In this document: one piece after another, positions 2,916-62,329 of the stretch | Position numbering within the stretch: the first letter of the stretch is position 1 | Layout of the letters: each line of letters opens with the position of its first letter | From: a virus | Lineage: Duplodnaviria > Caudoviricetes | Virus record (IMG/VR): IMGVR_UViG_3300006153_000003 | Length of the DNA stretch: 64,000 bases | Direction: 5' to 3' (one strand) | Notes under the pieces: generated by a model | What the model saw: the letters and a program-made list of their open reading frames with translations, nothing else | What the model was told of the DNA's origin: nothing | Database searches by the model: none | Translations under genes and position numbers: made by a program

Positions 2916-3065
2916 TTCTTCAATTTACACAATTTCACAGAAAATAGTACAAATGAAAGAGCAATTTCATCTGTATTATTTTCACTCATTTCAGAGTAAA
3001 ACAAGGTTTTCTAGCCTTGTTTTTTTTATACCCAAAATTCAAAAAAAGAAAGGAAGAAAAATTTT

Positions 3066-4073
3066 ATGGCACATTTATTTGTAATCGCAGGACACGGACA
3101 CGGAGATTCAGGAGCAGTTGGGAATGGTTTCACAGAAGCAGAACGAGTAAGAGCATTAGCAAGTAGAATTGGTGAACTTGGAGGTTCAAATGTAACACTC
3201 GGAGATATGAGTCGTGACTATTATGCTGACAATGGAATATCAAAGCTTAATATTCCGAAGGACTGGGCGATTATCGAACTCCATATGGACAGCGGAGCAA
3301 GTTCAGCAAAAGGTGGTCACGTAATTATTTGCAGTGGATTAAATGCAGATGCATACGATAATGCACTTGCAAACTTTATTGGTGGAATACTTCCGGGGAG
3401 AAGCAACAAAATCGTAGCAAGAAACAACTTAGCAAATCCAAGACGGGCAAAAGCAAGAGGATTTAATTACCGTCTGTTAGAATGCGGATTTATATCTAAT
3501 GCAAATGACGTAGCTATTTTCAATAATAGAATGGATGAAATCGCCCGGGGAATTCTTGCTGCATTTGGAATCGGAGCGTCTGGTAAAGTAAATACGCCTG
3601 CACCGACTCCAGTGCCGACTCCGACACCTAAACCAACCAACAATACAAATGCTGGTGGCACGCAGGCAATGAAAAATGCTCAGGTACATATCAATAATTT
3701 CTGTGGGGCAGGTCTCGTTGCAGATGGAATTATTGGTCCCAAAACAAGAAAAGGACTTATTAAAGCTCTTCAGGTGGCTTTAAACAAGGACTATAATGCC
3801 AAACTTGTAGAAGATGGTATTTGGGGTCCTAAGACAAAAGCTGCATTAGGAAATCACTGTGTAGGCCGTGGAGATACTCAATATCTTGTGACTTTTGCAA
3901 AAATTGGACTTACTGCACTGAGCTACTTTGGGAATGCGGTAGAATCTCCTGGAAAGTTTGGATCTGATTTTGAAAAATCTGTTTATAATTTCCAGGTTGC
4001 AACTGGTTTAACGAAAGACAAAATTGTAGGGAAAAATACAATTAATATGATTCTAACAAAACTTGGATGTTAG
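3066..4073 (+). CDS. Endolysin: N-acetylmuramoyl-L-alanine amidase (Amidase_3) with PT linker and peptidoglycan-binding domains
   Basis: IAGHG..DSGAVG, E, ELHMD and LLECGFISN motifs; DGIIGPKT and DGIWGPKT repeats. Confidence 0.92.
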   Translation: MAHLFVIAGHGHGDSGAVGNGFTEAERVRALASRIGELGGSNVTLGDMSRDYYADNGISKLNIPKDWAIIELHMDSGASSAKGGHVIICSGLNADAYDNALANFIGGILPGRSNKIVARNNLANPRRAKARGFNYRLLECGFISNANDVAIFNNRMDEIARGILAAFGIGASGKVNTPAPTPVPTPTPKPTNNTNAGGTQAMKNAQVHINNFCGAGLVADGIIGPKTRKGLIKALQVALNKDYNAKLVEDGIWGPKTKAALGNHCVGRGDTQYLVTFAKIGLTALSYFGNAVESPGKFGSDFEKSVYNFQVATGLTKDKIVGKNTINMILTKLGC

Positions 4074-4096
4074 TACATCTGCTATTTGATATGATT

Positions 4097-4136
4097 ATAG
4101 GGTAGTTGAGATTAATTCTCTTCTACCCTATTTTTT
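4097..4136 (+). terminator. Intrinsic terminator after endolysin
   Basis: ATAGGGTAG...CTACCCTAT followed by a T-run. Confidence 0.75.
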
Positions 4137-4392
4137 ACGATTTGTTATATTCTTTGATTTTCCTTAAAATTCCCCTATATATCTTATCTTTTAATAAATG
4201 GATATACTCACGAGATATGGGGTATTCAGACATAAACTCCGGATTATCGTGGAAAAATTTCTTTTGTTCTTCATCTGGGAGATAGATTGTATATTCCTCA
4301 TAGAAATCAAGGTCACTTCCGAACGCATAACTAAACAACCTCCGTATTTGTTCAGGGGTCATACTAATAGCATTTAGTTGGTTGTGCATCAT
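4135..4392 (-). CDS. Hypothetical protein
   Basis: 85-aa ORF with GAGG RBS, divergent from the HTH gene. Confidence 0.6.
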   Translation of the reverse strand: MMHNQLNAISMTPEQIRRLFSYAFGSDLDFYEEYTIYLPDEEQKKFFHDNPEFMSEYPISREYIHLLKDKIYRGILRKIKEYNKS

Positions 4393-4432
4393 ATCATTAT
4401 CCTCATTTCCCTACATTTGTCCACATATAAAT

Positions 4433-5296: not shown

Positions 5297-6526
5297 TCAT
5301 ATAATTACTTGTTTTGATAGTGTATCAACCATATTTTTCTTAGAATTTTGATTAACATGAACATATATTCTTGCCGTAGTATCATAATTTGCATGACCTA
5401 GCCACTCTTGGATTTCTTTCATCTGATACCCTAAGTTTAACAACAAAGAAGCACAACTATGTCTCAACCCATGAAATGTTATGGGTGGAAGTTCATTTTT
5501 TTTAATCACTTTTGAAAAAGTATGAGTAATATAAGTCGGTGTAATCAAATTACCATTTTCGTGAACAAATAAATATTCTAAATTATCAGTGTTATACGCA
5601 TTCCCGTAAATTTTCATATAATACTTTTTATCTTCAATTATCTTTTTCAAATATTCTTCTAATTCTGAAAATAACGGGAAACTTCTTATTGAAGATTCGT
5701 TTTTCAATTGATTTTTCTTTAAGTGCACAGTTCTATATTTGTTTTCAGTATCGTCTAACATAAACCCGGTCACTACGCTATGTTGTATATAAAGAATATG
5801 ATTAATAAAATCAACATCGCTTATTTTAATTCCAACCACTTCTTCTCTTCTTAACCCATAATAACTTGCTAATAACACAGGTATTAAAATTTTACTATCT
5901 TCAGATTTCAGAATATTAATTAATTCTTGAATTTGATCTATATTATACCACTGTGCTTTTTTTGTATCACATTTAGGCTTGACAACATTATCAATAGCTT
6001 CTTTCCTGATGTATCCTTCTTTTATAGCTTTTGATATTATCGACATTAAAGTTGCATAGTGTCGTTGCAGTGACGTTCCTGATAATTTTTTTCTTCCATC
6101 ATATCCATTCTTTTTTTCATCAAAATATCGATTAATGTCATTAGAATTTAGATTACAAATTTTTATCTTTTGTTTATAAAAATATGGATACAGATGCACT
6201 CGAACTGTTAATTCATCTGAGGCAAAAGTTATATCATCAACTCTACTCTTTTGAGTCTCAAGCCATTGCTTCATATAATCACAAAACAATAAAGACTCTT
6301 TATTATTCAAAAATTCTATATTTGTATGTTTAGAAGAATTGTATTTAGTCAATTCTTCTTCCAACATTATCTCGGCCTTCTTTTTATTTCCCCTTATATC
6401 TAATTTTGTATTTATCCATTTAAGTTTTCTTTTGTTTTCCTTATCATATAAATTTAAGACGATATACCATTTCCCATTTTTCTTTTGAACACTTCCTGTA
6501 ATCTCTTTTTTATTTTGGGTTTTCAC
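5297..6526 (-). CDS. int: Phage integrase (tyrosine recombinase with N-terminal arm-binding domain)
   Basis: YGLRREE, FHGLRHS, WLGH, TTARIY motifs; adjacent to attP. Confidence 0.95.
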   Translation of the reverse strand: MKTQNKKEITGSVQKKNGKWYIVLNLYDKENKRKLKWINTKLDIRGNKKKAEIMLEEELTKYNSSKHTNIEFLNNKESLLFCDYMKQWLETQKSRVDDITFASDELTVRVHLYPYFYKQKIKICNLNSNDINRYFDEKKNGYDGRKKLSGTSLQRHYATLMSIISKAIKEGYIRKEAIDNVVKPKCDTKKAQWYNIDQIQELINILKSEDSKILIPVLLASYYGLRREEVVGIKISDVDFINHILYIQHSVVTGFMLDDTENKYRTVHLKKNQLKNESSIRSFPLFSELEEYLKKIIEDKKYYMKIYGNAYNTDNLEYLFVHENGNLITPTYITHTFSKVIKKNELPPITFHGLRHSCASLLLNLGYQMKEIQEWLGHANYDTTARIYVHVNQNSKKNMVDTLSKQVII

Positions 6527-45550: not shown

Positions 45551-45599
45551 TTAAAATCACCTCCTTACCAGTTGAATCGAAATTTTTATTTCCATTTAC

Positions 45600-46634: not shown

Positions 46635-46814
46635 TTAATCTACGTTTACGTGAGGTAAAGCCATACTTTATTCACAAATTATATTCGTATTCGTGGGTGT
46701 CTTTTTACGTCACTACCACATAACTTTTTCGATCATTTATCATCAACGTGCCATAATAAATAATCTTGTGACAACCTTTATTGGCTAAAGGTTATAAATA
46801 CTTTGGGTGATAGT

Positions 46815-47171: not shown

Positions 47172-47195
47172 TACTTTTCACCACCTCCTGTCAAA

Positions 47196-47852: not shown

Positions 47853-48650
47853 CTTTTCTCCTCCTCTTTCATTACTCTATTTCGTCCCAGCTCAAATATC
47901 TCTTTATCCTTTTCAATACAAATAACTCTACGATTTGTATTAATCCCAGCAATGGCACACGTCATACTTCCAGCTGTGGAATCAAGTACAATATCTCCTT
48001 CATTTGTATATGTCTTCATAAAATACTCATAAATCTCCACAGGTTTCTGTGTCCTATGAATTTTATTAGATTGATCTGCATTACTAAAAATCTGCACATC
48101 AAGAGGATATCTATCTGTACTATCATAAGAAGTCTTTCTTACTTCTCTTCCATAGCAGCTATTTCCATCAGCTTCCCTAATATAATTTGTCTTTGCCACT
48201 TTTCTTTTATGTCCATGAGTCATCTGTGGGTTATATGTAGGTGGCTTCTTATAAAACACTTCTATGTTTTCATGTGCCCTCATTGGCATTTTCTTAGCAT
48301 TAAGATGCCCTTTAGGATGTGTTTTATTCCATATCCATTCATATCTAAACATCTTGGGGTTACTCATTACAAGAGCTGAGGTAAATGGTTGACTACTAAA
48401 GAGAAGAATTGCTCCATTATCTTTGATAATCCTGCAATATTGTTCCCATAATGGTTCAAAAGGAATTATTGTATCCCACTTACATTGAGTTGTACTAACC
48501 ATACGGGAGATCCGCGATTATGCAATCTATTGATTTATCTGGTATATAGCTCATAACATTCAAACAATCTCCGCATATCAATATATTATCTCGGAAACCC
48601 GTATTATCAGACACCTCACTTTCATTTAAAATCTTGTACATATTTATCAA
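47816..48650 (-). pseudogene. DNA N4/N6 methyltransferase split by a 4-nt insertion
   Basis: 5' part (48495-48650) reads GDCL...ADLPYG then stop; the rest (TTQCKWD...HRTQKP...DSTAGS) is in the next frame. Confidence 0.8.
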
Positions 48651-48662
48651 ATATATATTCAC

Positions 48663-48709
48663 CAGAAAGGCATGTCCATCTCACGGCTGCAGCACCTTTA
48701 TCCTTTCTG
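48663..48709 (-). promoter_or_regulatory. Structured leader E3
   Basis: CAGAAAGG...CCTTTCTG arms enclosing the palindrome GCTGCAGC. Confidence 0.65.
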
Positions 48710-48736
48710 TATTATTTTCTATATTGTTTTCTATAT

Positions 48737-49192
48737 TTAATCTAAATCTCCACAATGCACTAATGTGTTGCCACATCTAGGACATAATGTTTCACCTATG
48801 CCACCACTCCAACTTTCATACCATGGAGAAACCCATCTATTACAATGATGGCAAAACCAATCATAACAAATACTTCCGCTATATTTAATATCAGAGCTTC
48901 CGTATTTAGACTTACTATAAACAATTCTCCGTAGTCTTTCCTTTTCTTCTATTGCCTTTCTTTTTCGCTCTTCTATTTCCTTTTCTCTACGTTCTTCTTC
49001 TATCCATTTCAATTCTTGTTCTGAATATTCGTAGTCATCATCATACATCCCTTCAAATATTTCTTCTTCACCATTCCAACTACAGCATGGAGGTTCTATT
49101 GGTACACCACTCGCTCCCGAAGTCCAACCACCAATACAATCGTTTTGGTACAAAGGACATTCACTACAGTCTGTAATATTTTTTGCCTTAAT
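48737..49192 (-). CDS. Cys-rich hypothetical protein (probable ATT start)
   Basis: GGAGGTG ahead of ATT; CSEC, CHHC and CPRC motifs. Confidence 0.6.
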   Translation of the reverse strand: MKAKNITDCSECPLYQNDCIGGWTSGASGVPIEPPCCSWNGEEEIFEGMYDDDYEYSEQELKWIEEERREKEIEERKRKAIEEKERLRRIVYSKSKYGSSDIKYSGSICYDWFCHHCNRWVSPWYESWSGGIGETLCPRCGNTLVHCGDLD

Positions 49193-49235
49193 TTATATCA
49201 CCTCCAATCAAATGAAACAGATTTTTCATCTATAT

Positions 49236-49613
49236 TTATTCTTCTATCTTTTTGCATTTTATTTCGAAAAAGATCTTCATCCTTTCCTCTTCAACTCTTG
49301 TTTCTGCAAGTCTGCTTAAAAGATCAAGACAAGCACTTTTACAATTTATATGTGTTATTACATTATGCTTTTGCCCTCTTTCACCACCATATACAATCCA
49401 AGTGTCCCCTTTCTTTTCAAGACAAACTGTTTCTTCTGCATATCCTCCAAGAGAATAAAAATTTTCAGGAATGCCAAACTCTTTTAATATTTCGATTAAC
49501 ACATCTTGTATTTTTTCTTCCATCAATTTCATAGTCTCAGCTCCTTCAACACCATAACGGTAATAAAAATGCCCACAAGCATGTAGGTGACTTCGTAAAA
49601 TATACTCCTGCAA
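49236..49613 (-). CDS. Hypothetical protein, polymorphic-toxin-immunity-like (probable start at MKLMEEK)
   Basis: GIPENFYSL, W.VY..ERG pattern; function tentative. Confidence 0.45.
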   Translation of the reverse strand: MQEYILRSHLHACGHFYYRYGVEGAETMKLMEEKIQDVLIEILKEFGIPENFYSLGGYAEETVCLEKKGDTWIVYGGERGQKHNVITHINCKSACLDLLSRLAETRVEEERMKIFFEIKCKKIEE

Positions 49614-49761
49614 TAACTCCTATCGCAGTCGTGATCCACGCAGCTATTTGTACTTTCCAACGATTATCTATGTTTTTCACCTCCTACTTAAAATTTCCTT
49701 TAATATCTATACATATTTTTTTCACTTATACAAACACTACCTATGAAAGGAGTGTGTACGC

Positions 49762-49920
49762 ATGAAAAGTAGTAAAACAAATTTACCAACAATAAATCCT
49801 TACTCCAATGACGATTATGACGATGACAATATTCCAGAGGTTGATCTTCCAAAGACAACCGATGCCGAAAATATAATTCCAGATGAAGTGCCACGTCGTG
49901 ATGGTCCTGGTGGAGAGTGA
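49762..49920 (+). CDS. Small acidic protein (52 aa) ending VPRRDGPGGE, not in ORF track
   Basis: AAAGGAG RBS; manual translation; hairpin after the stop. Confidence 0.65.
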   Translation: MKSSKTNLPTINPYSNDDYDDDNIPEVDLPKTTDAENIIPDEVPRRDGPGGE

Positions 49921-49957
49921 GAGGGAATTTCCCCTTACTCACCCCCATACTCTCTCT

Positions 49958-50683
49958 TTACTCCTGCGGCCTGTCTGCTATGCAGGCAATATTTCCTTCA
50001 ATCTTTTTATAAGTATCATTTGCCATAAGAACCTGCAATACCGCATTGGACAGCATCGCCTTCGTGCTTTCATCAAATGCCGCCTTCACATCACGATTTA
50101 CCTGCTGGCGAACTTCATCCACCTGCTTATCCAGATAGCTTTTCACCTCATCATCAATTCCAAGGTGCTGCAGAAGATACTCTTCAAATGTATATTCCTT
50201 CGTTTCCGCTCTGTACCGCCCCTTATTGTACCTGTCCTTCTCAAAGTTCTTAACGATCCGGAATCTATTGTTTTCAATACAATCCTTTACGCATCGCTTC
50301 GCATACTGGAACAATGTAAGCTCTTCTTTCGGTTCATCATCCCAGACATTGGAACCACCAATGCAAATTTTCTCATTAACCATGAAATCCTGTACAATAT
50401 CCTTAATGATATCGCCGGTTGCACACTGAATCTTCTTCTGAATATCCTCCAGGACCTCTCTCTTGATCTCACTCACGATTTCGCTATATAGATTCTTCTT
50501 GACCTCTGATGCTACGACCTGCATAATTCCAGCCGCAAAATTTTCCGTGTTGAATTCTATTTTCAGATTTTCTCTCTCCATCTTTACTTCCGTATTATCC
50601 ATTCCGTCCTGTTCCTCCATTTCTTCCGGCGTAGGCTCGTAGTCCTCGCCATAATAATCATCATAATACATATTTAATTTCAC
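49958..50683 (-). CDS. Hypothetical helical phage protein, higher GC
   Basis: 241-aa ORF with AAGGAG upstream. Confidence 0.65.
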   Translation of the reverse strand: MKLNMYYDDYYGEDYEPTPEEMEEQDGMDNTEVKMERENLKIEFNTENFAAGIMQVVASEVKKNLYSEIVSEIKREVLEDIQKKIQCATGDIIKDIVQDFMVNEKICIGGSNVWDDEPKEELTLFQYAKRCVKDCIENNRFRIVKNFEKDRYNKGRYRAETKEYTFEEYLLQHLGIDDEVKSYLDKQVDEVRQQVNRDVKAAFDESTKAMLSNAVLQVLMANDTYKKIEGNIACIADRPQE

Positions 50684-50699
50684 TCCTTGCCACTAACTT

Positions 50700-50924
50700 T
50701 TAATCTAATGGATCGCCAACATCAAACAGCACTTTATTTACCACTTCGCCAATACCACACATATCTACCCCATACGGCTCCACATCTTTCCAACTGCACT
50801 TGTCACAATCTTGCCCCTTATGCAAAGCTTTCGCATGACATTCTTCCATATCTTTTTCCATCTGATCCGACACATGAAGTATCATCACTGTATGTGGTGC
50901 TTGGAAAAGTTTAATCTTTTTCAT
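50700..50924 (-). CDS. Hypothetical phage protein
   Basis: AAGGAG RBS. Confidence 0.55.
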   Translation of the reverse strand: MKKIKLFQAPHTVMILHVSDQMEKDMEECHAKALHKGQDCDKCSWKDVEPYGVDMCGIGEVVNKVLFDVGDPLD

Positions 50925-51037
50925 CTTTGGTCTCCTTTTATAAACTTTCGATTATTTACAGGTTCCAAATCATTTAATATTTTTCTAAGAATATATTGTG
51001 TGTAGTCATAAAATACTGCACACAATAAAATTCAAAA

Positions 51038-51796
51038 TCATTTCTTTCTATTTGCTTTTAATTCCTGTAACTTTTGATCCACTTCCTCATCTTTCATACG
51101 TTTATCAAGACGCATTTGCTGAACAGTTGAAGAATTCTCATAAGCAACTTTATTCCCATCAGCTTCTTCTTTGGTTTTACGGATTCCATCTCTTACTTTT
51201 TCTAACATTTTATCTTCTTCTTTGGACGAAATACCAGGTGTTGCTTGTAATGACTTAGTGACCTGTGCTGTTTCAAGTGTTAGGATTGCATTTTCTTTTT
51301 CTGATTTCAAATCTCCTAACTCAGCAAAAATATTATCTACAGTCTCTTTTTGCAGGACAGAATTAGACTTAAGTTCTTTTAAAGCATTTTTAATAATGTC
51401 TACTTTTTCATTTACTTCCTGTTGTCGTTTTAAATAAACCTTTGCACCTTCATCATCATTCTTATCAACACAGGTATTGATGTTGAGATTTAATTGCATA
51501 TTCTCTTTCTGCAAAATTCTCAATTGTTCTTCATACGTTTGAATTTTTCCTAACATTTGCGTGTAGATAGAATAAGCCTTTTGATAATCATTTCCCTTCG
51601 CTGCTATTGCAGTATTATAATATGCCTTGGCCCCCTCCGGTGTAGAAGCGTCTTTTGAAATCAATTCGTCTGCTGTTCCAGAAGCCCTTAATCTTATTCT
51701 TTTACCCACCTTAGTAAAAAACAATACACCTCCAATAGTGCAAACAAAAATTAAAATAGCTAGTAGATTTACCATATCAATCCCTTCCTTCATCAA
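51038..51796 (-). CDS. PspA/IM30-like coiled-coil protein with N-terminal TM helix
   Basis: Long helical coiled coil, A..YL and KLQELKA C-terminus; probable start at MVNLL. Confidence 0.65.
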   Translation of the reverse strand: MMKEGIDMVNLLAILIFVCTIGGVLFFTKVGKRIRLRASGTADELISKDASTPEGAKAYYNTAIAAKGNDYQKAYSIYTQMLGKIQTYEEQLRILQKENMQLNLNINTCVDKNDDEGAKVYLKRQQEVNEKVDIIKNALKELKSNSVLQKETVDNIFAELGDLKSEKENAILTLETAQVTKSLQATPGISSKEEDKMLEKVRDGIRKTKEEADGNKVAYENSSTVQQMRLDKRMKDEEVDQKLQELKANRKK

Positions 51797-52415
51797 TATC
51801 TAATCCAAAATTCTTAAAAAGTTCTGTCATACCTCCCACGTAACCTGAACCCATAGCCTGAAACTTAAATCCATCACCATAACGGTATAAACGCCCCATT
51901 TCTACTGCATTCAAATCTGTAAATTTTTCTTCTTCAGACAAATCATACTCTGCAACAAATCCTTTAGGATTATCGTAATCACAAATTATCATTTTGGCAT
52001 TGCTCACCATCCCAAAATTTTGTAATCTCTGTATTGCTCTAAAAATAGTTAAGCACACTGTAAAATCTGTTCTTTCTTTAGGAAACTTGTCTGCATGAAT
52101 AATAAAATATTCGTCATAATGTTTACCGTTAAAATTAATTCCCTGTGAATCGTCACCTGTTCGATTATCTCCTGAAAACTCAATCCATGGATAATCAGTA
52201 CCATTTCCATAAGTATTATAATTTACAATATCTTTAGGATAAGCCACTTTTCTATCCGAATTAGTTAACATCCCATGGATATCAAAATCAATATCTGACT
52301 CTCCTGCAAAACGATTCTCATCCCAATTAACTCCAATAAAGATATTTTTAATTGCACTTCCATCTTCTTTTGCCATACTAATCTTTTGATTCTTACTCAT
52401 ATTAATTACTGCCAT
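51777..52415 (-). CDS. TerD-family protein
   Basis: GVNWD, DFD, GDNRTGD, QNFGMVSNA, GRLYR and FKFQAMGSG motifs. Confidence 0.9.
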   Translation of the reverse strand: MAVINMSKNQKISMAKEDGSAIKNIFIGVNWDENRFAGESDIDFDIHGMLTNSDRKVAYPKDIVNYNTYGNGTDYPWIEFSGDNRTGDDSQGINFNGKHYDEYFIIHADKFPKERTDFTVCLTIFRAIQRLQNFGMVSNAKMIICDYDNPKGFVAEYDLSEEEKFTDLNAVEMGRLYRYGDGFKFQAMGSGYVGGMTELFKNFGLDIDEGRD

Positions 52416-52436
52416 TATTTAACCCTCCATTTTCAA

Positions 52437-53201
52437 TTATTTACTGTTTAACCAATCTTTATATTGTCTTAAAATTTCACTATATAGCTCTTCATCACTC
52501 ATCCTATTCATATCTTTTACTGCTGTAAATCCTGTATTATCATACTTGCGTCTTTTCATATCATCTAAAGAACGTAAATAATCAAAACTTTCATTTCCAA
52601 TACCAATAAACTGAACAAACATATTGTAATTAGATAATTCTCTAATAATTCTGTTTGTCTCTTCGGTATCCCAATTTTCTCCATCTGTTATAAAGATAAT
52701 AAAAGCTGGGATTTCACTTGGTTCAATATCCTTATAATATGAGACAATATCTTTTAAAACTGGTGCATAACTGGTCCCTCCCATACTCATACCTGATCTC
52801 ATCATCACTTTTCTTACATAATTCTTATAATTATTAATATCAACTGCTTCAAGGCGCTTCATACTATTTGAAAATAACCAAGATTCTAATTCACCATTGT
52901 CATCAAACTTCAATGCTATTGGTAAAAGCCTTGTAATTGTATCCTGGACAGAACCATTATTAAACAGCTCACTCATACTTCCTGAATAATCCATAGCCAA
53001 TGCAACTCTTGCAGTATGCTTTGACATATCAATCTTACTTGTTTTCGACATATCAATTAGAACCTTGTTTAGGCTTTTGGCCGACTTTGACATATCAATT
53101 GTTACATTTTCTAAATTCTGTAATGCTACTGGTGTGGCGGTACTATCATGCACCACCATCTGAGAATCCTTTCTACCAAACAATTTTTCAAATAATCCCA
53201 T
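52437..53201 (-). CDS. vWA domain protein (TerF-associated type)
   Basis: DYSGSM MIDAS, GGTSY, FITDG, QFIGIG and DNTGF motifs. Confidence 0.88.
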   Translation of the reverse strand: MGLFEKLFGRKDSQMVVHDSTATPVALQNLENVTIDMSKSAKSLNKVLIDMSKTSKIDMSKHTARVALAMDYSGSMSELFNNGSVQDTITRLLPIALKFDDNGELESWLFSNSMKRLEAVDINNYKNYVRKVMMRSGMSMGGTSYAPVLKDIVSYYKDIEPSEIPAFIIFITDGENWDTEETNRIIRELSNYNMFVQFIGIGNESFDYLRSLDDMKRRKYDNTGFTAVKDMNRMSDEELYSEILRQYKDWLNSK

Positions 53202-53213
53202 TTGTTTCCTCCT

Positions 53214-55820
53214 TTAATTCTTTTTTCTTTTTGTAATATATTTTCTTAATATATCAATTGGAATCACAATAAATCCTAGTCCAATTATGACCATCCATTG
53301 AACGATATTTAATGAACTAACCTTAATAAGATTTCCCATAAACGTACAAACTGCCATCGTTCCTATAAAAATTCCCAAAGCAATTTTTGTAAATAATTTA
53401 TTGCTGCTCAATCCACTAAGCAAATTCATATGTTCTGTTCTAATATTGAAACCATTAAATACTGCCATGAAACATAAGAGAGCAAATCTGGCCGTCAAGC
53501 TTTCCAATTCCGATGTAAATATGCATTTAATTGGAGAAATTGTAAGTATCCCGTAAACAGCGATAAAAGAACACGTACTTATTGCAATTCTTTCTTTTGC
53601 CCCTCTAATAAACAAACCTGATCCTTTTTTAATAGGTTTCTCACTCATATATTCTTCTTTTGGAGGTTCTCCACCAAAAGAAAGTGAATTAAGAGAATCC
53701 ATAATAATGTTTACAATTAAAATCTGAACTGATGCTAATATAGACGCTCCCGCAGACAACATCGGGTATACAATGCTTAAAATCAAAAGTGAAATATTAA
53801 TTGGTAATTGAAATTCTAGGAACATCATGATATTATGCATAAATGTTCTACCCAGTTCTACTGCCTTTACTGTTGAAGCAAAATTGTCATCAGTTAATAC
53901 AATATCGCTTGCTTCTTTTGCTACGTCGCTCCCACTTTGCATCCCAAATCCAACATCTGCCCTCTTTAATGCCGGAGAATCATTTACGCCATCTCCTGTC
54001 ATTGCTACAGATTTACCAATTTCCTGTGCCAATGTTACAAGCCTAAGTTTCGTATTAGGAGAACATCTGGAAATTACTCTAAGCGAAGGAATTACATTCT
54101 TTACTTCTTCATCTGTCATTGCTTCAAATTCATCATTTGATAAAGCTACATCACCCTCTTTATAAATTCCACATTCTCTCGCTACTGAAATAGCTGTTTC
54201 AATACAATCTCCTGTAATTTCAATTACTTGAATACCAGCTTTACGTGCAACCCTTACAGCGTTTGGCACTTCCAACCTTACAGGATCAACTACACCAATA
54301 ATTCCAAGCAATGTCATTTCTGATGGCAGTATATTTTCAATTAAATCTTCGTTTTTCATGGCTAAAGCAATACACCTAATTGACTTCGATGTCATTGTTC
54401 TAATAGTCTCATCTATACTCTTCTTCATTGTGGACGTTAAATCACATATCGATCCATCATTTTTCATAACTCTTGTGCAAGAATCAATCAATTTTTCAGG
54501 AGCCCCTTTGTAATATGTAGTCCCATTTTCAGAAGTAAAAGCTGAATACTTATTAGAACTGTTAAATACCTGCTTGTCCTTCATATTATTATTGTTCAAA
54601 ACAGATAAATACTCTTCATTTTTCACAAGAGAAAGTATAGCTCTATCAATTGAATTGCCGCCTGTAATATTATTTTTGTTGTCAAACGTTGCACTATTGT
54701 TTAATATAATATTCTTTTCAATTTCGCTCCAAAGAGGAGAATTTCGATCAACTTCCTTCCCTTCTCCACTTACAATTGTTTTTGGACTCATAACTCCTGT
54801 TGTTAAGGTCCCTGTTTTGTCAGTGCAAATAATATCTACATAGGCTAATTCTGGAATTTTATTTGGATTTTTTGCCAAAATATTAAATTGTTCCATTGTT
54901 TTAACATTTTGTTTAGTTACAAGTTTTACAATTAATGGAAGTCCTTCTGGAACTGCAGCTACAATGATTGTTAATGCTACCGAAAAATTTTGTGCAAATT
55001 TTTGAATAATATTAAATGGACTATCTGCAAAATATTCGCTAAATCCAACTTCTACAATTCCTGATACAGTAAGGATAACAAATGTTAAAATTGCTGCGAT
55101 TGTTCCCCATTTTGAGATAAATTCACTCAAATTATCAAGTGCAATATCTAATGCTGTCTTAGGTGATTCCAATGTCTGCATTTTAACCATTGTGTCTCCA
55201 TTAATGGTATTAATTCCAACATCTGTTACAACCATCTTCCCCTCACCGGCCATTACTGTAGTTCCTGCAAATAGACAGTTTTCATTTGTATATGCATCTG
55301 TAGATGTTGTTTTCTTATGAATATATCCCTCCACTGGGTACTTTTTACATTCTTTGCTTTCTCCATTTATTGCAGCGTTATTTACAGAAATCTTTCCTTC
55401 TACAATATAACCATCAGCGAATATCTCTTGCCCCATTCCTAGACAAACCAAATCACCAATTACAATATCATCCTTGTTAATTGTTACTACTTTTCCATCA
55501 CGAATAACATCACAATATCGAATTGATGTTTTTGCTCTTAATTCTGCGGCCGATTTCTGTACACCCAATCCTGTTTTTACAGCAATTCCAGTTACAATTC
55601 CAAGCACTACCATAATCATAATAGGTTCTGAAAATTCCATTACACCCATAAATGCAAGAAATAATTGAATAATTGCAATCGCAATAAGAATGAGTGTGAT
55701 TTTTTCGCTCAAAGCATCTTTTGCAAAATCGTACCAACTTTTCAACTCTGGTTCTGGCAGCTTATTACTACCATATTTTTCTCTACTTTTTAATACTTCA
55801 TTGTTTGTTAATCCTTTCAT
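53214..55820 (-). CDS. Calcium-translocating (PMCA/P2-type) P-type ATPase
   Basis: NGES, VPEGL, DKTGTLT, KGAPE, DPVR and MTGDGVND motifs; multiple TM helices. Confidence 0.92.
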   Translation of the reverse strand: MKGLTNNEVLKSREKYGSNKLPEPELKSWYDFAKDALSEKITLILIAIAIIQLFLAFMGVMEFSEPIMIMVVLGIVTGIAVKTGLGVQKSAAELRAKTSIRYCDVIRDGKVVTINKDDIVIGDLVCLGMGQEIFADGYIVEGKISVNNAAINGESKECKKYPVEGYIHKKTTSTDAYTNENCLFAGTTVMAGEGKMVVTDVGINTINGDTMVKMQTLESPKTALDIALDNLSEFISKWGTIAAILTFVILTVSGIVEVGFSEYFADSPFNIIQKFAQNFSVALTIIVAAVPEGLPLIVKLVTKQNVKTMEQFNILAKNPNKIPELAYVDIICTDKTGTLTTGVMSPKTIVSGEGKEVDRNSPLWSEIEKNIILNNSATFDNKNNITGGNSIDRAILSLVKNEEYLSVLNNNNMKDKQVFNSSNKYSAFTSENGTTYYKGAPEKLIDSCTRVMKNDGSICDLTSTMKKSIDETIRTMTSKSIRCIALAMKNEDLIENILPSEMTLLGIIGVVDPVRLEVPNAVRVARKAGIQVIEITGDCIETAISVARECGIYKEGDVALSNDEFEAMTDEEVKNVIPSLRVISRCSPNTKLRLVTLAQEIGKSVAMTGDGVNDSPALKRADVGFGMQSGSDVAKEASDIVLTDDNFASTVKAVELGRTFMHNIMMFLEFQLPINISLLILSIVYPMLSAGASILASVQILIVNIIMDSLNSLSFGGEPPKEEYMSEKPIKKGSGLFIRGAKERIAISTCSFIAVYGILTISPIKCIFTSELESLTARFALLCFMAVFNGFNIRTEHMNLLSGLSSNKLFTKIALGIFIGTMAVCTFMGNLIKVSSLNIVQWMVIIGLGFIVIPIDILRKYITKRKKN

Positions 55821-56174
55821 TTGTCCTCCTTATATTTTATATCTGTTTTATAACATCTATAACAAAAGAATGTTAAAAATAATAAGGCCTAATACATTGA
55901 CCTTTCATCTCAGAATATATCTTCTACATCTGGGTTCAAATCATTCTCCTATTATCATCCAATTTCGTAACAAACTATCTAAACTTGAATATGGACATTC
56001 TGCATTGCTTTTAAGATCCCCGTAAGAATATACAATACTTTCCTTGAAATCTCTTTATTGATATTTTTATCATATATGTACCTCCTTTTTTAAAACCGCA
56101 AGAATTTGTACCTATAAATTTTCCTATAATCATTCATCATCTCCTCAGTTAAAATCTCGATTTTGTAGTGAGAG

Positions 56175-57509
56175 TTAAGCACCTTCAACCACTAACTCTT
56201 CAGCTTCCTCCATATCTGGAGCATCTGCTTTATCCTTGATTATCCCTTCAAGAACCTTAAAACTGAAATTCTTATGTTTATATGCTGTAAATTTCTCTCG
56301 ATTGTCAATTCTAACAACAACACCTTCCCTTACATGTGTCTTTCCAACCGGGTCAGCACCGTCATAATATTTCTCGACTCTCTCCATCAAATCTTCCCAT
56401 GTAGTAAATACAAACTTTTCAAAAGTAGGAACACACTTAACCCCCAGCTTCTTACATTCAATCTGTACCTGCTCCCAAGGAAGTTCCACAGCAAACCCGT
56501 CCTCATTTGTCATAGTCATTCGATATACATAAATATCATTTTCACCTGGCTCACACCCATATGAGAATACAGTTTCCTTACCATACTGCTTTTCAAAATC
56601 CTTATCTTTGACAAGTTTATTTGAACATCTTCCCATAATTGTTTGATTACCCTCTGTATATCCTACAATCTCATAAAATACTTCTACACCTTTTGGCAGT
56701 TTATCTTTGAAAAAGTCCTGATATTTCTGCCTAAACGCATTGCTACCATAATATCCACCTTCGTAATTCCTTAGTGTAGTTCTCTTGGTCCCACTTACTA
56801 CAGTGAATCTTTTTACTTCTTTATCCTTAATCTTAAATATTTTTTTCAAAATATAATGTCTTTTCTTTTTTACAATCTCAATAGCATTTGCAGTTCTGGC
56901 AGATGTGCCATGCATTTTAAGTGTTATGTAACAGGTATCACCCTCTCTAAAAGCATTTTGATTATATGCAAGCTGCGCAGTATCAATATGCTCAACAAAG
57001 AATGGATAAGAAACCTTTTCTTTTTCTTCTTTCTTATTTCTATTTTTATTCCCAGAAGAATTGTTTTCGCACCTTCTCCGATTAGAACGTGGAATATATT
57101 TTTTGCAAATTTCATGCCCATCCAACATAGAAATCTGGTCGCCATCTGATAATGTTTTTACGTCTACATATTTATTTAACACTTCAATTGGCAATACAAG
57201 TCCGTCTGACTTTTCACTTCTGAGTTTTAGAGCTGTGATATTTCTCTTATCAGGATCAAGATACCCTCCAACATTATTACCGTTTTCATCTTTCAAGCGA
57301 ACAAGATTATTTTCACACGCAAATTCTTCACTTAACTGACCATCTACAGGAAAATAAATTACTCGTTGCCCTTCTGTATAACTCATATCTACAATTACAT
57401 TGTTTCCAAAAATTGTTGCACACTGTAATCTGTCTGCATTACTATGTTTTCTAAGCTGCTTAATTGTTGTTATGTATCCACAATATCCATTTGTTCTATT
57501 TTGTTCCAA
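56175..57509 (-). CDS. RNA ligase (Rnl2-like) with N-terminal OB/tRNA-binding domain
   Basis: HSNADRL, KMHGTS (motif I), EIVG, REGVV and YKHK motifs. Confidence 0.85.
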   Translation of the reverse strand: MEQNRTNGYCGYITTIKQLRKHSNADRLQCATIFGNNVIVDMSYTEGQRVIYFPVDGQLSEEFACENNLVRLKDENGNNVGGYLDPDKRNITALKLRSEKSDGLVLPIEVLNKYVDVKTLSDGDQISMLDGHEICKKYIPRSNRRRCENNSSGNKNRNKKEEKEKVSYPFFVEHIDTAQLAYNQNAFREGDTCYITLKMHGTSARTANAIEIVKKKRHYILKKIFKIKDKEVKRFTVVSGTKRTTLRNYEGGYYGSNAFRQKYQDFFKDKLPKGVEVFYEIVGYTEGNQTIMGRCSNKLVKDKDFEKQYGKETVFSYGCEPGENDIYVYRMTMTNEDGFAVELPWEQVQIECKKLGVKCVPTFEKFVFTTWEDLMERVEKYYDGADPVGKTHVREGVVVRIDNREKFTAYKHKNFSFKVLEGIIKDKADAPDMEEAEELVVEGA

Positions 57510-57593
57510 ATTCGCTTACCGTCATAAGCTGTGCGCACTTTTCACCTATAGGAACTTTTGATTTATCCTTTCTTCTTTTCTTCTTTTATTTGA

Positions 57594-57622
57594 TTGACTA
57601 TTATTTTACTTTGTTATATACT
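57594..57622 (+). promoter_or_regulatory. Sigma-A promoter, antisense to the lytic operon
   Basis: TTGACT-17-TATACT. Confidence 0.7.
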
Positions 57623-57717
57623 ATTTTTGCCCCTTCGGTAGGCACTAGACAAAGATCTAACTGAAGGTAGTGGTAGTTCATGGGGCATTTACCATTACTC
57701 TAAAGGAGGTGTTGCCT

Positions 57718-57912
57718 ATGGTAGCAGATATCGCAACCATTGTTTCGTTTATGTGTTTGTTGATCTCGGAACTTGATTGTTTACGTTATCTAAGTCTAGT
57801 GCCCTACTTGAACTATCGCTTTAACTTATTGCTTTTTCTTTCATCCAATAAATCAAATCATTTCTATTATTCTTTAATTCTCCATCTATTACTCTTTTTA
57901 ATATCTCATTGA
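57718..57912 (+). CDS. Small hydrophobic peptide, type I toxin-like
   Basis: AAGGAGGT RBS; hydrophobic N-terminus; long-range pairing in the mRNA. Confidence 0.4.
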   Translation: MVADIATIVSFMCLLISELDCLRYLSLVPYLNYRFNLLLFLSSNKSNHFYYSLILHLLLFLISH

Positions 57913-59173
57913 GCCAATATCCAACGTCCTTCCCTTCTTTCAAATTCATTGTTTTCTTTACATCATTGCCATTTACAGCTAAATCTTTTAATGAAAAACA
58001 TTCTTGTTCCTGTAAAATTTCTTCAAGAATATCTTCTATATTATTTACTTTCTCTATTCGAGATTTTTCATAGTCTGTTTTTTGTCCTTTAATATCTGCT
58101 TTTCCAACTTCTAACAACCGTCTAAATTGCTTTTCGCCGATTTTATTAAGCCATCTCTTCACGTACTTTTTTCCGACTTCAAAAGTAGCATCATGATAAT
58201 ATACCAGCTCTACTACATTATTTCTGGTTCCATTATCAAATCTAAGACGTTTCATAATAGAATCTGTAATATCAGCACTTACTTTCCCATGACCTTTGAA
58301 ATGCCTAATACCATCTTCTCCATCCTGATAAGAATGTGGTTTCCCAAAATCGTGAAAGAAAACTGCAAGCCTTACGATCAAATCATCTGACTCACATTTT
58401 TCTATTGCATGAATCGTATGACCAAATACATCATACGCATGGTATGGATTATTCTGTTGGAAATCTATCATATCTTTTAATTCTGGAATAAACAGAGAAA
58501 ACACATCAGGATACAGCACTAATTCAACACAGAATTGGTTAGAAGCAACTATTTTACAAAATTCGCTGTTAATTCTTTCAACGGAAATATTCTTTAACCG
58601 CTCATATTGTCGTTCTATTTCAAACATTGTTTCTGGGAACCCCGCAAAACCTAACTGCGCTTCAAATCTTATTGCTCTCAGTATCCGCAAAGCATCTTCA
58701 TTAAACCTCTCTTCTGCGAAACCAACGCAACGAATCTTTTTATATTTAATATCTTCCATACCATTAAACGGATCAATCAGACCAGTTTTAGGATTGTATG
58801 CCATAGCATTAATCGTAAAATCTCTTCTCTGTAAATCTTCAACAAGATTCTTTGTGAATGTTACATTATCAGGTCTACGATTATCAGAATAATCTCCATC
58901 AATCCGATAAGTTGTTACCTCATATGGTTCTTTATTTATCAGTATTGTTACTGTACCATGTTTCAGACCAGTAGGAATAACTTCTTCATTTGGAAATGCT
59001 TCTAATATTTCACCTGGCATGGCAGATGTACAGATATCATAGTCATGAATTGGCCGTCCTAATATACTATCTCTAACTGCTCCACCTACCATATATGCTT
59101 CATACCCACATTTCTCTAATTCCTGTATGATATAATTTACCGGCGCAGGAACTTCTATATTAAATCTTTCCAT
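57821..59173 (-). CDS. cca: CCA-adding tRNA nucleotidyltransferase with HD domain
   Basis: VGGAVRD, DYD, RRDFTINAMA, EDALRILR and HDFGK motifs. Confidence 0.92.
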   Translation of the reverse strand: MERFNIEVPAPVNYIIQELEKCGYEAYMVGGAVRDSILGRPIHDYDICTSAMPGEILEAFPNEEVIPTGLKHGTVTILINKEPYEVTTYRIDGDYSDNRRPDNVTFTKNLVEDLQRRDFTINAMAYNPKTGLIDPFNGMEDIKYKKIRCVGFAEERFNEDALRILRAIRFEAQLGFAGFPETMFEIERQYERLKNISVERINSEFCKIVASNQFCVELVLYPDVFSLFIPELKDMIDFQQNNPYHAYDVFGHTIHAIEKCESDDLIVRLAVFFHDFGKPHSYQDGEDGIRHFKGHGKVSADITDSIMKRLRFDNGTRNNVVELVYYHDATFEVGKKYVKRWLNKIGEKQFRRLLEVGKADIKGQKTDYEKSRIEKVNNIEDILEEILQEQECFSLKDLAVNGNDVKKTMNLKEGKDVGYWLNEILKRVIDGELKNNRNDLIYWMKEKAIS

Positions 59174-60116
59174 TAATATCTACCTCAATTTGTGGAATCT
59201 CAATAAACTTCGCCAATAATCCTTCATGGTAAAAAACTTTGTCACTTTCAGTAACTTCTTCTCCAAGAAACTTTCTTAAAACAAATGGCAATGCAAAATT
59301 ATTCAAACATTTAAACTCTATTTCGGTATCACCATTCTCATCCATAATTTCTTTGTAATATCCATCTATCCCAACAATCTTATGAAGTAAAAATAACTCT
59401 GTTTTGAGCGGAACTGGTATATCCTTTATACCATTGCTAATAGCAAATGCAATTCTTTCCTGCCTATTCCTATCCATATCAGAAATATCAAGCATAATTT
59501 CGTCATTAGAAAAAAATACAACTCGATCCAATGATACAAACACTTCTGTTAAATATGTCAATACACCGTCCATAAGATATTTTTCAAATGTGATATGTTT
59601 TTTAGGATTGCAGTTGCCTAAAATAACCTGACGGATATATTTACTATTGATTATGTGCTGGTTATCTGTATATTTACTAATAAAATTCTCCCAAGAAACA
59701 GCTCCACCAAAAATATCAGCGCTATAGTGATGTAAAGATGAAAAGTTTGCTTTTCTCATATCAATACTGATAAAACATTTCCCATCATTTGATGGCTTAA
59801 ATATATCTTTATTAGAAAGGTTTTTATGTGTCACAGCATACTTATTCATATCTTCTTCATTAAATTTTTGATAAGCTTCCGTATTCTTGATATCTAAAAT
59901 AGTAGCATCCTTTACACGATTATATTCTTCAAAATAGTCTTGTTCACAATGGTATTTCCCCAGTTCGCTTAAAAATATATTCCACTTTTTAAGTGTTCCA
60001 TAAAACTTATCATATAGGACCAATCTATCAGTAAAATATGGTTCCTGGAATATCCTGATTGGAATATTGCAATCTTTACAAAATCTTTCTTTTGCCCTAA
60101 CAGATACTTCCATCAT
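59160..60116 (-). CDS. Uncharacterised protein, possible family-A polymerase-like palm
   Basis: SIDMRKANF and FFSNDEI acidic motifs; function is inference. Confidence 0.45.
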   Translation of the reverse strand: MMEVSVRAKERFCKDCNIPIRIFQEPYFTDRLVLYDKFYGTLKKWNIFLSELGKYHCEQDYFEEYNRVKDATILDIKNTEAYQKFNEEDMNKYAVTHKNLSNKDIFKPSNDGKCFISIDMRKANFSSLHHYSADIFGGAVSWENFISKYTDNQHIINSKYIRQVILGNCNPKKHITFEKYLMDGVLTYLTEVFVSLDRVVFFSNDEIMLDISDMDRNRQERIAFAISNGIKDIPVPLKTELFLLHKIVGIDGYYKEIMDENGDTEIEFKCLNNFALPFVLRKFLGEEVTESDKVFYHEGLLAKFIEIPQIEVDINGKI

Positions 60117-61141
60117 ATCTCTCCCTTCACAATTCTCTCATTTACATACATCTTAAACTCGTTAATTCTTTTATGATCTGGCACATCAGGAAGAGAAGTA
60201 TTATTTTTCGCATAATCAAATTTCCTTTCATACTCATTCAGCAAATCGTAAAATGCAGTAGTTGGTTGCCTGTTTTCATCTAAATACTCACCGTTACGTA
60301 TACTCATAAGCAAGTCATGCTCATCCGCCCTATATGTGATAATTTCTTCTTTTTCAAGAATATCAATACACATCATATAAAGCCGGATCAAATGGGCCAT
60401 ATGTTTTCCCAACTTGTCATGCGATATTGCTTTTTCATTTCGTTTGCCGATTTTGTTATAACTGCTTACAATCGCCTTCATTTCATTCCACATACCAGCC
60501 CAGTCTCTCAGTGGATAATGTTTCAAACATACATCCATGAAAATCTCACTGTCATATCCTTCTTGAACTGCTGTATCAATATATAGTTTTACATCACTAT
60601 CATCATGCGGATAATACCTGTTTTTAAAATCGTATTTTGCGTTATTGATGCTTTTTAGAATATATTCTTCATTCTGTGCCTGACCTACCAACCTTGCAGC
60701 TTTATTTTCCATTCTACGGAGTTGGCTGCCGGCATACCCTCCAAATGTATGAATGCAGACTTTAGACAAAAACATTTTTCTATTCTCTAAAAGCTCTTTT
60801 CCAATATTTGATAAATGTAAATAATGCTCCGGCTTGCAACCCAAAATTTCCACCGTGTTAGGGTTGTTGGACGTAAGTAATTGGATCATTTTGTTAAATG
60901 AATATATTGTAGTGTCGGTATCTACATTTACAACCTGCTCAAAATCTGTTCCTAACAGAACATCTTTCTTAGTATTTAAAGCAATCCCTCGCACATCCAA
61001 GTCAGATCCTTCTTTATCCATCCCATAAGCATGACTTCCTCCAAGAGTTAAGAGAATAATATTATCACCCAAATTCTTATCCTCTCTCAGGAAATCATAT
61101 TCACTTGTTTTTAATTTTTCTTTAATCTGTTCAATATTCAT
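60113..61141 (-). CDS. RlaP-like nucleotidyltransferase (Pol beta superfamily)
   Basis: GGSHAYG...SDLDVRG, NPNTVEIL and KHMAHLIRL motifs. Confidence 0.85.
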   Translation of the reverse strand: MNIEQIKEKLKTSEYDFLREDKNLGDNIILLTLGGSHAYGMDKEGSDLDVRGIALNTKKDVLLGTDFEQVVNVDTDTTIYSFNKMIQLLTSNNPNTVEILGCKPEHYLHLSNIGKELLENRKMFLSKVCIHTFGGYAGSQLRRMENKAARLVGQAQNEEYILKSINNAKYDFKNRYYPHDDSDVKLYIDTAVQEGYDSEIFMDVCLKHYPLRDWAGMWNEMKAIVSSYNKIGKRNEKAISHDKLGKHMAHLIRLYMMCIDILEKEEIITYRADEHDLLMSIRNGEYLDENRQPTTAFYDLLNEYERKFDYAKNNTSLPDVPDHKRINEFKMYVNERIVKGEI

Positions 61142-61158
61142 TCTCTCAACTCCCTCTT

Positions 61159-61542
61159 CTATCTACATTCTTCAAATACAATAACTTTAAACACAAGTTT
61201 GAACTGTAAATCTTTTTTAATTATACCAATTTTCTGAAGTTTCACCAACTCAGTTTCTATATATCCATGACATTTTTCTATATCAGAAATATTAAACATT
61301 TCTGTATTAAAGCTATATTCATCACCAGAAGCCAAAACATATCCAAAATATAAATAGGAATCATTCATCGGATCATCAAAAAATTGAATTTCTCCTTTTC
61401 TCTGGTTACAAATATAATTTTCCCCTTCTTTTGACCACTTCCAATCCGCAAACTTATCTGTTTCACATCCGGTCAAATCATAACCGGCTACAACATAATA
61501 ACTACTTTCTATGCTCATTTTTTTCCTCCCAATGAAATGCAA
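61159..61542 (-). CDS. Hypothetical phage protein (probable start at MSIESS)
   Basis: GGGAGG RBS before the internal Met. Confidence 0.6.
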   Translation of the reverse strand: MHFIGRKKMSIESSYYVVAGYDLTGCETDKFADWKWSKEGENYICNQRKGEIQFFDDPMNDSYLYFGYVLASGDEYSFNTEMFNISDIEKCHGYIETELVKLQKIGIIKKDLQFKLVFKVIVFEECR

Positions 61543-61825
61543 GATTTATCCAATAAGACCATTTTTCTTTCGGTGTTCAAAACTACCCATGTGACAACCA
61601 TGATTATGACATACAGAAAAAATATTCATTAGTGGATATTTATAAATACATTTTCCTTACCTAACACATAACATTTCTCCCTTTGTGTAAACATTATCAC
61701 ATTCAATTTGTTTCGGTTTTGCAACATCTTTAAAAATTATTTCAACTTGCATTATATTTCTCCCTTCATATAATCATCATTGATTTTTTGATTATTTTAA
61801 TCAAAGAAATGAATCGTGTGTTCTA

Positions 61826-62329
61826 TTATTTCTTCTCTACCACCAAACTATTTTTCTGCACTGCTGTAATTACATTCGATAATTCATCATCTCTTACTTC
61901 TATTTTCTGTTTAATTTTACCATCTGAATTATATCTGCCACGCATAGCAGCACCAACAGCTATGTAATTGTCTTTTGTAACTGTTGTAATCGTGTTACAT
62001 AGTCCATCAGTCCTAAGAGTATACTCACGCATATTACATCTGCGTTCTTTAATTTTACCTGCCTCATAGTCTTTTCTGATTTGCTTTGCATATTCTGTTC
62101 TCTGATATTTGAGTGCTGCGGGAAGAACATTGTTTTCAACAGCATATAAATAACTATATCCACCAGCATTTCCTAATGGCTGTGCCGTTAAACACATTGC
62201 TATTGCATTTGCATCATATACACGATTTCCCTGGCGATACTGTTTACCAAAATTAATTTCTCCAATACCGCCTAATAAAATTGGTTTATGTTCACCACAA
62301 GTAGATTCTATTCCACTTGTGGCTTGGTA
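61826..62329 (-). CDS. -1-frame extension of the C5 methyltransferase (extra TRD-like repeats)
   Basis: Open frame from the slippery site to 61826; QGNRVYD..AIAMCLTA and CNTITT segments resemble repeats in the upstream gene. Confidence 0.7.
   Translation of the reverse strand, partial: YQATSGIESTCGEHKPILLGGIGEINFGKQYRQGNRVYDANAIAMCLTAQPLGNAGGYSYLYAVENNVLPAALKYQRTEYAKQIRKDYEAGKIKERRCNMREYTLRTDGLCNTITTVTKDNYIAVGAAMRGRYNSDGKIKQKIEVRDDELSNVITAVQKNSLVVEKK

Follow-up and report, generated by a model that had tools for sequence, protein, structure and literature searches.

Uniquely addressed inverted-repeat sites in the accessory genome of a large temperate phage lineage of gut Firmicutes: candidate recombinase sites for in-register cassette exchange

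The IMG/VR virus record IMGVR_UViG_3300006153_000003 (Caudoviricetes) contains a stretch of 64,000 nucleotides (nt), here called the window, in which a short palindromic motif, WTRAAW-N6-WTTYAW, is found at gene boundaries. This raises the question of whether the motif is a real element in AT-rich DNA and, if so, whether it serves gene exchange or gene expression. The initial annotation regarded it as the mark of an integron-like cassette system. Comparison with related phages points to a different arrangement, to which we give about even credence: a large temperate phage lineage of gut Firmicutes would format its accessory genome by 40-70 uniquely addressed sites, where identical overlap sequences let a recombinase swap cassettes in register between genomes and differing overlaps block self-deletion.

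The window is an AT-rich stretch (GC content ~0.33) of a large temperate phage, with nearly all genes on the minus strand from ~4 kb onwards. A total of 111 relatives were found in IMG/VR by the polymerase, in clades at 91-97%, ~81%, ~63% and ~59% identity, and several of them are annotated as proviruses of 130-217 kb. The closest isolate by polymerase is Clostridium phage Amboise, a [Clostridium] innocuum phage (50% amino acid identity), and a megablast search of the 24-44 kb region against isolate phages gave zero matches at the DNA level. The comparisons presented here involve the close clade (the window and genomes G001 to G004), the 81% clade (G010 and G005) and the 63% clade (G007 and G011-G015).

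The eight exact and six one-mismatch copies listed in the initial annotation all have correct coordinates, but two exact matches inside genes, at 6749 and 11032, had been missed. The total of ten exact matches in the window is unremarkable (6.2 ± 2.5 expected), and matches with up to one mismatch show no enrichment (80 vs 92.7 expected). The six one-mismatch copies had been picked from 70 such matches, a class that is not enriched in non-coding DNA (10 of 70, vs 14% non-coding overall in a simple gene model based on codon usage). The positional bias of the exact matches is real: seven of the ten are non-coding vs 0.9 ± 0.9 expected, none of 2000 shuffles of the non-coding segments reached seven, and 59 other half-site arrangements and spacings gave 0-4 non-coding matches each in the window. 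The signal could not be established from the window alone. In a look-elsewhere test covering all equally degenerate dyad motifs with gaps of 0-12, 27 of 40 shuffled non-coding sets yielded an equally degenerate dyad with an equally small nominal P; since the consensus had been fitted after the fact, the window by itself is inseparable from over-fitting.

The window statistics thus leaned to chance, and replication in the relatives overturned this. The motif was fixed beforehand and then scanned in related genomes, with the following results:

G001, close relative: 36 of 45 exact matches non-coding (genome 10-13% non-coding)
G002, close relative: 36 of 45 exact matches non-coding (genome 10-13% non-coding)
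G003, close relative: 39 of 43 exact matches non-coding (genome 10-13% non-coding)
G010, 81% clade: 19 of 38 exact matches non-coding (controls 0-9)
G007, 63% clade, GC content 0.42: 9 of 15 exact matches non-coding (controls 0-3)
L095, 20 kb of G003: 12 matches vs 2.3 ± 1.5 expected; none of 200 shuffles reached 12

The non-coding enrichment was confined to the inverted arrangement with a 6-nt gap and was seen in three clades. The motif is real and specific, and it is the replication in relatives that settles its reality. Each genome carries 40-70 sites, at a density of ~1 per 1.5-2 kb in the accessory arrays, and no motif sites were found in the replication core, as the initial annotation had stated.

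Read in gene orientation, a site consists of the stop codon, the left arm, six variable bases (the spacer) and the right arm, followed after 0-10 nt by the Shine-Dalgarno sequence (SD) and the start codon. The stop codon is often a TAA or TGA within the left arm, or it lies 2-5 nt ahead of it. The units between sites contain 1-5 open reading frames (ORFs), each with its own SD, and with the site located between stop codon and SD, each unit has all it needs to be translated. The arms preferred in the close clade are WTGAAA...TTTCAW, and those of other clades ATAAAA...TTTTAW. When a longer motif was sought, no conservation was found beyond the arms and the SD.

Both strands yield the same consensus, in which spacer position 1 is Y and spacer position 6 is R. 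No covariation between the arms was detected: positions 1 and 18 are complementary in 50% of the sites, and positions 3 and 16 are A-C in 38, G-C in 44, G-T in 26 and A-T in 13 cases, A-C thus representing 31% of sites on the sense strand. Predicted RNA stems are weak (-0.9 to -5 kcal/mol), in most cases no stronger than those of shuffled sequences, and three of six window sites fold as a dyad hairpin. The absence of arm covariation together with the weak folds indicates that the element is a symmetric protein-type site in double-stranded DNA rather than a hairpin. Some spacers of the 63% clade are the SD itself (GGGAGA, GGAGAG, GAGGAG), with the start codon right behind the right arm, indicating that the element and the translation start region can overlap:

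G007, 72462, 74892 and 66198: sites with the SD as spacer; partners in G011-G015

Promoter and terminator signals were searched for at the sites. Sigma-70-like promoters numbered 87 vs 95.9 expected, none of them coinciding with the motif, and a hairpin was found beside the site at 42752 only, so a sigma-70 promoter/terminator reading of the element was rejected for lack of enrichment and of overlap with the sites. The sole near-consensus sigma-70-like promoters within 38-57 kb are a face-to-face pair at 42228-42269 (11/12 matches each), which together with the hairpin at 42723-42744 may mark a transcription-unit boundary inside the array.

The spacers carry the most informative pattern. Within a genome they are all different, as initially claimed (36/36, 36/36 and 39/39). 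Among the genomes of the close clade, identical spacers were found in 122 site pairs with both flanks unrelated, when composition predicts 9.1 and hexamer windows from the flanks 16-63. These shared spacers are collinear (27/27, 34/35 and 39/39 between close genomes, and 11/11 between the window and G003), indicating that they are not chance matches, and the distance between the same two spacers varies widely among genomes. Neither adjacent gene was homologous at the protein level in 125 of 164 same-spacer pairs, and the 65 spacers present in at least two genomes, here called addresses, had unrelated upstream contexts in 58 and unrelated downstream contexts in 58. When pairs were defined by flank homology instead, the spacer was identical in 42 of 50, though the flanks were just ~70-80% identical. 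The six genomes of the 63% clade contained 179 same-spacer pairs vs 8.6 expected, with the order kept in every pair. Spacer sharing across clades was at chance level only, indicating that the addresses are clade-specific.

Same-spacer partners in relatives were found for thirteen window sites. The array and the sites are listed below, with the spacers given on the sense (minus) strand:

37100..64000, minus strand: co-directional accessory gene array, with cassettes lying between sites; extends past the window end
20962..20979: junction site, spacer TGTGTG, one mismatch, directly 5' of the SD of the NAD-ligase gene; spacer also in G001, G002 and G003, collinear, with flanks mostly unrelated
22814..22831: degenerate junction site with two mismatches, spacer GATAGG, absent from the initial annotation; also in G001 and G003, collinear after the TAGGAC site, unrelated flanks
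23961..23978: junction site, spacer TAGGAC, following the ExoV/Dda-like helicase gene, at the border of the replication core; shared by the five close genomes, 4/4 relatives having a homologous upstream and an unrelated downstream flank
39607..39624: junction site, spacer TCTTGG, one mismatch; shared with G001-G004 in four different arm versions, flanks unrelated
39862..39879: junction site, spacer GGTTAA, left arm containing the stop codon of the upstream gene; also in G002 and G003, unrelated flanks
40241..40258: junction site, spacer CCAGAG, abutting the SD AGGAGG; also in G001, G002 and G003, unrelated flanks
42752..42769: junction site, spacer TTTTGC, beside the terminator-like hairpin 42723-42744; also in G002 and G003, collinear between CAACTC and CCAGAG
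43064..43081: junction site, spacer CAACTC, one mismatch; also in G001, G002 and G003, unrelated flanks
44118..44135: junction site, spacer CATCGG, one mismatch; homology with G002 and G003 stops exactly at its 3' (sense) edge
45572..45589: junction site, spacer ATTTCG; follows a PAPS-reductase-like gene in the window and in G002, and another gene in G003
49212..49229: junction site, spacer AATCTG; a 98%-identical block common with G001 ends immediately after it
56149..56166: junction site, spacer TCGAGA, one mismatch; the 98% block of G001 starts inside its left arm
61532..61549: junction site, spacer CTTGCA, abutting the SD; also in G001 and G003, unrelated flanks
2953..2970: exact match in a divergent intergenic region, candidate member only; no same-spacer partner in the relatives compared
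61809..61826: one-mismatch match, candidate member only; no same-spacer partner in the relatives compared

Alignments with close relatives showed homology blocks ending at sites 39610, 44118, 45573, 49194 and 56164. This was the check proposed in the initial annotation, and homology breakpoints between relatives do fall inside the motif: they were found at 55 of 81 informative motif-bearing junctions vs 103 of 291 junctions without a detected motif (odds ratio 3.9, from genome pairs that are not independent). The identity of the arms in same-spacer pairs depends on which flank is homologous:

upstream flank only homologous: left arm identical in 77%, right arm identical in 32%
downstream flank only homologous: left arm identical in 39%, right arm identical in 78%
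neither flank homologous: left arm identical in 26%, right arm identical in 31%

The left arm thus tracks the upstream flank and the right arm the downstream flank, with the spacer common to both, which places the crossover between the arms, within the predicted overlap region. The 81% clade repeats the pattern: comparison of G010 with G005 gave 10 junctions of the upstream-only and 7 of the downstream-only kind. The earlier proposal that the motif copies are recombination sites letting cassettes of a gene and its ribosome-binding site be exchanged is largely supported by these breakpoints.

On these grounds we lean, by a little, towards regarding the sites as dif/lox-like tyrosine recombinase core sites with position-specific overlaps, which would allow in-register cassette exchange within the gene pool of these phages. 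The two inverted arms of 6-7 bp (WTRAAW(Y) and (R)WTTYAW) would bind a recombinase dimer on double-stranded DNA, and the 6-bp centre would be the overlap where strands are exchanged. With some 40-70 sites in a genome, each having its own overlap, the sites would be mutually incompatible, and deletions and inversions would be suppressed. Related phages have the same overlap at the same position, so that when two genomes share a cell, either by co-infection or when a phage meets a resident prophage, recombination would proceed slot to slot only. One crossover would then give a genome with the left portion of one parent and the right portion of the other, in register, and two crossovers would replace a cassette, leaving the gene order undisturbed. 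The exchanged unit would bring its own ribosome-binding site, ORF(s) and stop codon, and be expressed by read-through of the array. The acting enzyme, its catalysis and the need for overlap identity are what we infer here from comparison of genomes.

Tyrosine recombinases are encoded in 10 of 10 relatives checked, and no serine recombinases were found in the 5 relatives searched. Each genome contains, besides the terminal integrase, an array-embedded recombinase of ~330-345 amino acids (aa), which occupies the same slot within a clade and whose slot lies outside the window:

5297..6526, minus strand: tyrosine integrase of 409 aa near the prophage end, conserved in G001; candidate enzyme, probably the prophage integrase
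838..1830, minus strand: XerC/XerD-like tyrosine recombinase of 330 aa, of phage or host origin
slot before address GATTGA in G002, G003 and G004; G003, locus L133, 4864-5859, minus strand; G010, 159138-160166; G007, 79124-79942: array-embedded tyrosine recombinase

The array recombinase of the close clade retains the catalytic residues R, K, HxxR, H and Y; among solved structures XerH comes closest to it, followed by XerA. Within this clade the slot is shared, yet the sequence is highly divergent among genomes (it was scored as unique in G004), and the recombinase gene itself behaves as if it were an exchangeable cassette. Possible acting enzymes are this array-embedded Xer-like recombinase, the terminal or another phage integrase, and the host Xer. 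Single-recombinase dif sites have arms of 10-11 bp and a central region usually of 6-8 bp (PMC5357621), and the inner parts of the difH left arm (AGTTATGAAAA) and of the difSL arms (TTTCCGAAAA and TTTTCTTGAAA) (PMC5357621) resemble the arms of the motif.

Several observations weigh against site-specific recombination at these sites. The window alone is statistically not decisive, and 35% of the junctions without a detected motif are also breakpoints. The conserved arm length is just 6-7 bp, when characterised tyrosine recombinase core sites have arms of ~9-13 bp. An enzyme-made crossover and short-homology recombination in the same 18 bp look alike in comparative data, which cannot separate them. 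A role in expression would likewise be compatible with the fixed place 0-10 nt ahead of the SD, and with the spacers of the 63% clade that double as the SD. Exchange is not strictly address-bound either, given that a PAPS-reductase family and a 71-aa family alternate between addresses ATTTCG and TCTTGG: the former is found before ATTTCG in the window (45600-46613) and in G002, and before TCTTGG in G001 (~81.5 kb), and the latter before TCTTGG in the window (39628-39843) and before ATTTCG in G003 (~42.9 kb), placements that look like occasional exchange between two different addresses. With respect to the enzyme, the array recombinases of the three clades are only ~20% identical, though the arms are nearly the same, and the enzyme of G010 is devoid of the conserved Lys and the third His, so its assignment is a lead and not a result; the array-embedded Xer-like enzyme could instead resolve genome dimers.

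The strongest alternative, which we regard as possible and rather unlikely, is that the element is a regulatory junction signal (the site of a dimeric phage protein or a translation-initiation context), with shuffling as a side effect of recombination over short homology, which the general recombination or replication machinery would carry out between identical 18-bp islands, as proposed for the PeSL elements of T4-type phages. The constant placement between stop codon and SD and the spacers that are themselves the SD would suit such a signal, and the window encodes RecJ-like, ExoV/Dda-like, SSB and DnaB-like proteins. PeSLs, which consist of an early promoter and a terminator stem-loop, are alike within a genome and recombine by homology into mini-circles (PMC2839356, PMC4122927); they are found on either side of ORFans in hyperplastic regions, where they bring about the shuffling of modules (PMC2839356). 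A shared spacer with arms that follow their flanks is also expected if crossovers need local identity. However, exchange driven by homology would have very little to work on in 18 bp whose arm positions vary, the sites have no sigma-70-like promoter or terminator and same-genome copies are dissimilar, unlike PeSLs. This alternative also leaves unexplained a symmetric 6-N6-6 consensus kept across clades, with a centre that is free between clades and fixed within them.

The initial annotation had itself offered phage repressor operators as the alternative, and this we consider improbable. The element would be the operator of a repressor or silencer, possibly one with a recombinase fold like MrpR of SPbeta, it would have no causal role in recombination, and breakpoints would coincide with it by selection for intact gene units. 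A dyad without covariation fits a dimeric DNA-binding protein, and these phages are temperate and large, like SPbeta, in which a repeated intergenic element is bound by a catalytically dead, tyrosine recombinase-like repressor (PMC10516654). The uncontacted spacer is invariant and the arms vary; for an operator the reverse is predicted. With breaks outside the element, neither arm would part from the spacer, whereas the arm beside a replaced flank is at background identity. Moreover, the 40-70 sites per genome lie inside operon-like arrays, away from promoters, and the array recombinase of the close clade keeps all its catalytic residues. Known operators of the CcpA cre, LacI and CRP types were also weighed: the cre spacing is 4 vs 6 here, and CG is not fixed at the spacer centre. 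Less probable still is an RNA-level element of the polycistronic transcript, such as a small hairpin or protein site for processing, stability or translational coupling at cistron junctions. It would account for the location in a transcribed spacer just 5' of the SD and for the window sites that fold as dyad hairpins, but not for the absence of compensatory arm variation, the frequent A-C pairs on the sense strand, the weakness of the stems relative to shuffles or the strand symmetry of the consensus, and the conserved addresses and between-arm crossovers would be left unexplained.

If the sites are recombinase core sites, their closest relatives in organization would be Xer/dif and Cre/lox, with which they share inverted arms around a 6-bp central region, partners that appear to have identical central regions and an Xer-like recombinase gene beside sites. 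They differ in that dozens of sites are present per genome instead of one, with 6-7 bp conserved per arm, and in that each has a unique centre kept by position across the gene pool, with an apparent role in gene exchange and not in dimer resolution. Engineered lox variants with different centres form separate compatibility classes and are used for recombinase-mediated cassette exchange, and the nearest mechanistic analogue would be this use of heterospecific lox sites.

The likeness to integrons would reside in the co-directional array of predicted promoter-less ORF cassettes, each bounded by a recombination site, in the suspected tyrosine recombinase and in the use of the array as a reservoir of accessory, defence-related functions. 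The integron-like label of the initial annotation does not hold further than this: attC sites are long imperfect hairpins of folded single strands, whereas the element here is an 18-bp dyad of double-stranded DNA without arm covariation, and exchange appears to be slot for slot between genomes, with position-specific spacers, in contrast to the insertion at one site of integrons. No attI/Pc platform was noticed in the window or the genome maps, although no dedicated search for intI-attI-Pc was made. Likewise, the coupling sequences of Tn916, a 6-bp region between cleavage points, were invoked earlier as a precedent for spacers that need not match; in these phages the centres of partners in different genomes do match, being a conserved positional address, and one cassette family at two addresses is seen only rarely.

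Two phage systems of repeated intergenic elements are also comparable. The PeSLs resemble the present sites in being short repeated elements that flank non-essential ORFs in hyperplastic regions of large phages and in lying at the breakpoints that distinguish close relatives (PMC2839356, PMC4122927); they differ in that here there is neither a promoter/terminator signal nor a hairpin, and every copy within a genome has a different centre. SPBRE, the element of SPbeta, occurs in about ten promoter regions and is bound by MrpR, which has lost catalytic residues (PMC10516654). Both cases involve a large temperate phage of Firmicutes that has a polymerase of the DNA polymerase III alpha type and a short intergenic element in repeated copies, together with a binder of the recombinase fold, which is only a candidate in ours (PMC10516654). 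The differences are that here 40-70 sites are located between cistrons, the close-clade array recombinase has its catalytic set intact and crossovers map inside the element.

Genes in the window include those for an anaerobic ribonucleotide reductase, a NAD-dependent ligase, an ExoV/Dda-like helicase, a DNA polymerase III alpha-type polymerase, RecJ-like, DnaB-like and SSB proteins, an endolysin and the two tyrosine recombinases. The array at 37100..64000 contains three DNA methyltransferases, the PAPS-reductase-like protein, a P-type ATPase, a TerF-like vWA protein, an RNA ligase, a CCA/polyA polymerase-HD protein, RlaP and many ORFans. The methyltransferase genes (44147-44968, 47816-48502 and 62308-63915, minus strand) occupy three separate array slots, and the methyltransferase families f1 and f18 recur in relatives as alternative cassettes. 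The P-type cation ATPase (868 aa; E1-E2_ATPase, Cation_ATPase_C; 52437-55820, minus strand) adjoins the TerF-like vWA protein, in an unusual auxiliary block with 98% identity to G001. An RNA-repair-like module is located at 56175-61141 (minus strand), composed of an OB-domain RNA ligase, a CCA-adding/polyA polymerase that bears an HD domain, a 318-aa protein and RlaP, and is probably a counter-measure to tRNA-cleaving host defences.

Outside the array, the NrdD-like anaerobic ribonucleotide reductase gene (1107 aa; 11404-14727, minus strand) contains an intein at ~12385-13467 carrying a LAGLIDADG homing endonuclease (Intein_splicing, LAGLIDADG_3, Hom_end). The gene call for the homologue in G001 gives 735 aa, which suggests that the intein is present in some genomes and absent from others. 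A DDE transposase of 438 aa (Pfam DDE_Tnp_1, E 2e-16) is encoded at 8686-10002 on the plus strand, opposite to the phage genes, and was missed by the codon-usage gene model. It sits in a GC-richer stretch at ~8.5-10.2 kb that looks like an insertion sequence (IS) element inserted in the prophage, and an STWASA-N4 dyad, apparently stronger than the motif in the look-elsewhere test, is probably part of this IS element (8.5-10.2 kb).

As far as found in a limited literature search, no natural array of uniquely addressed sites has been described. If the sites function as proposed, nature would have its own version of cassette exchange with heterospecific lox sites, and the linker sequences long postulated for modular phage evolution would have a molecular basis. 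Phage mosaicism is usually seen as the outcome of rare illegitimate recombination and selection, or of homology between repeated regulatory elements; modular exchange would here be a programmed, enzyme-guided process, with the spacer centre as positional address. If confirmed, the sites would be natural, orthogonal and short recombination sites of possible use in genome engineering, and they would provide a rule predicting which phages can exchange genes, as well as a testable mechanism for the fast turnover of counter-defence and auxiliary genes, such as methyltransferases, the RNA-repair module and ion pumps, in the prophages of gut bacteria.

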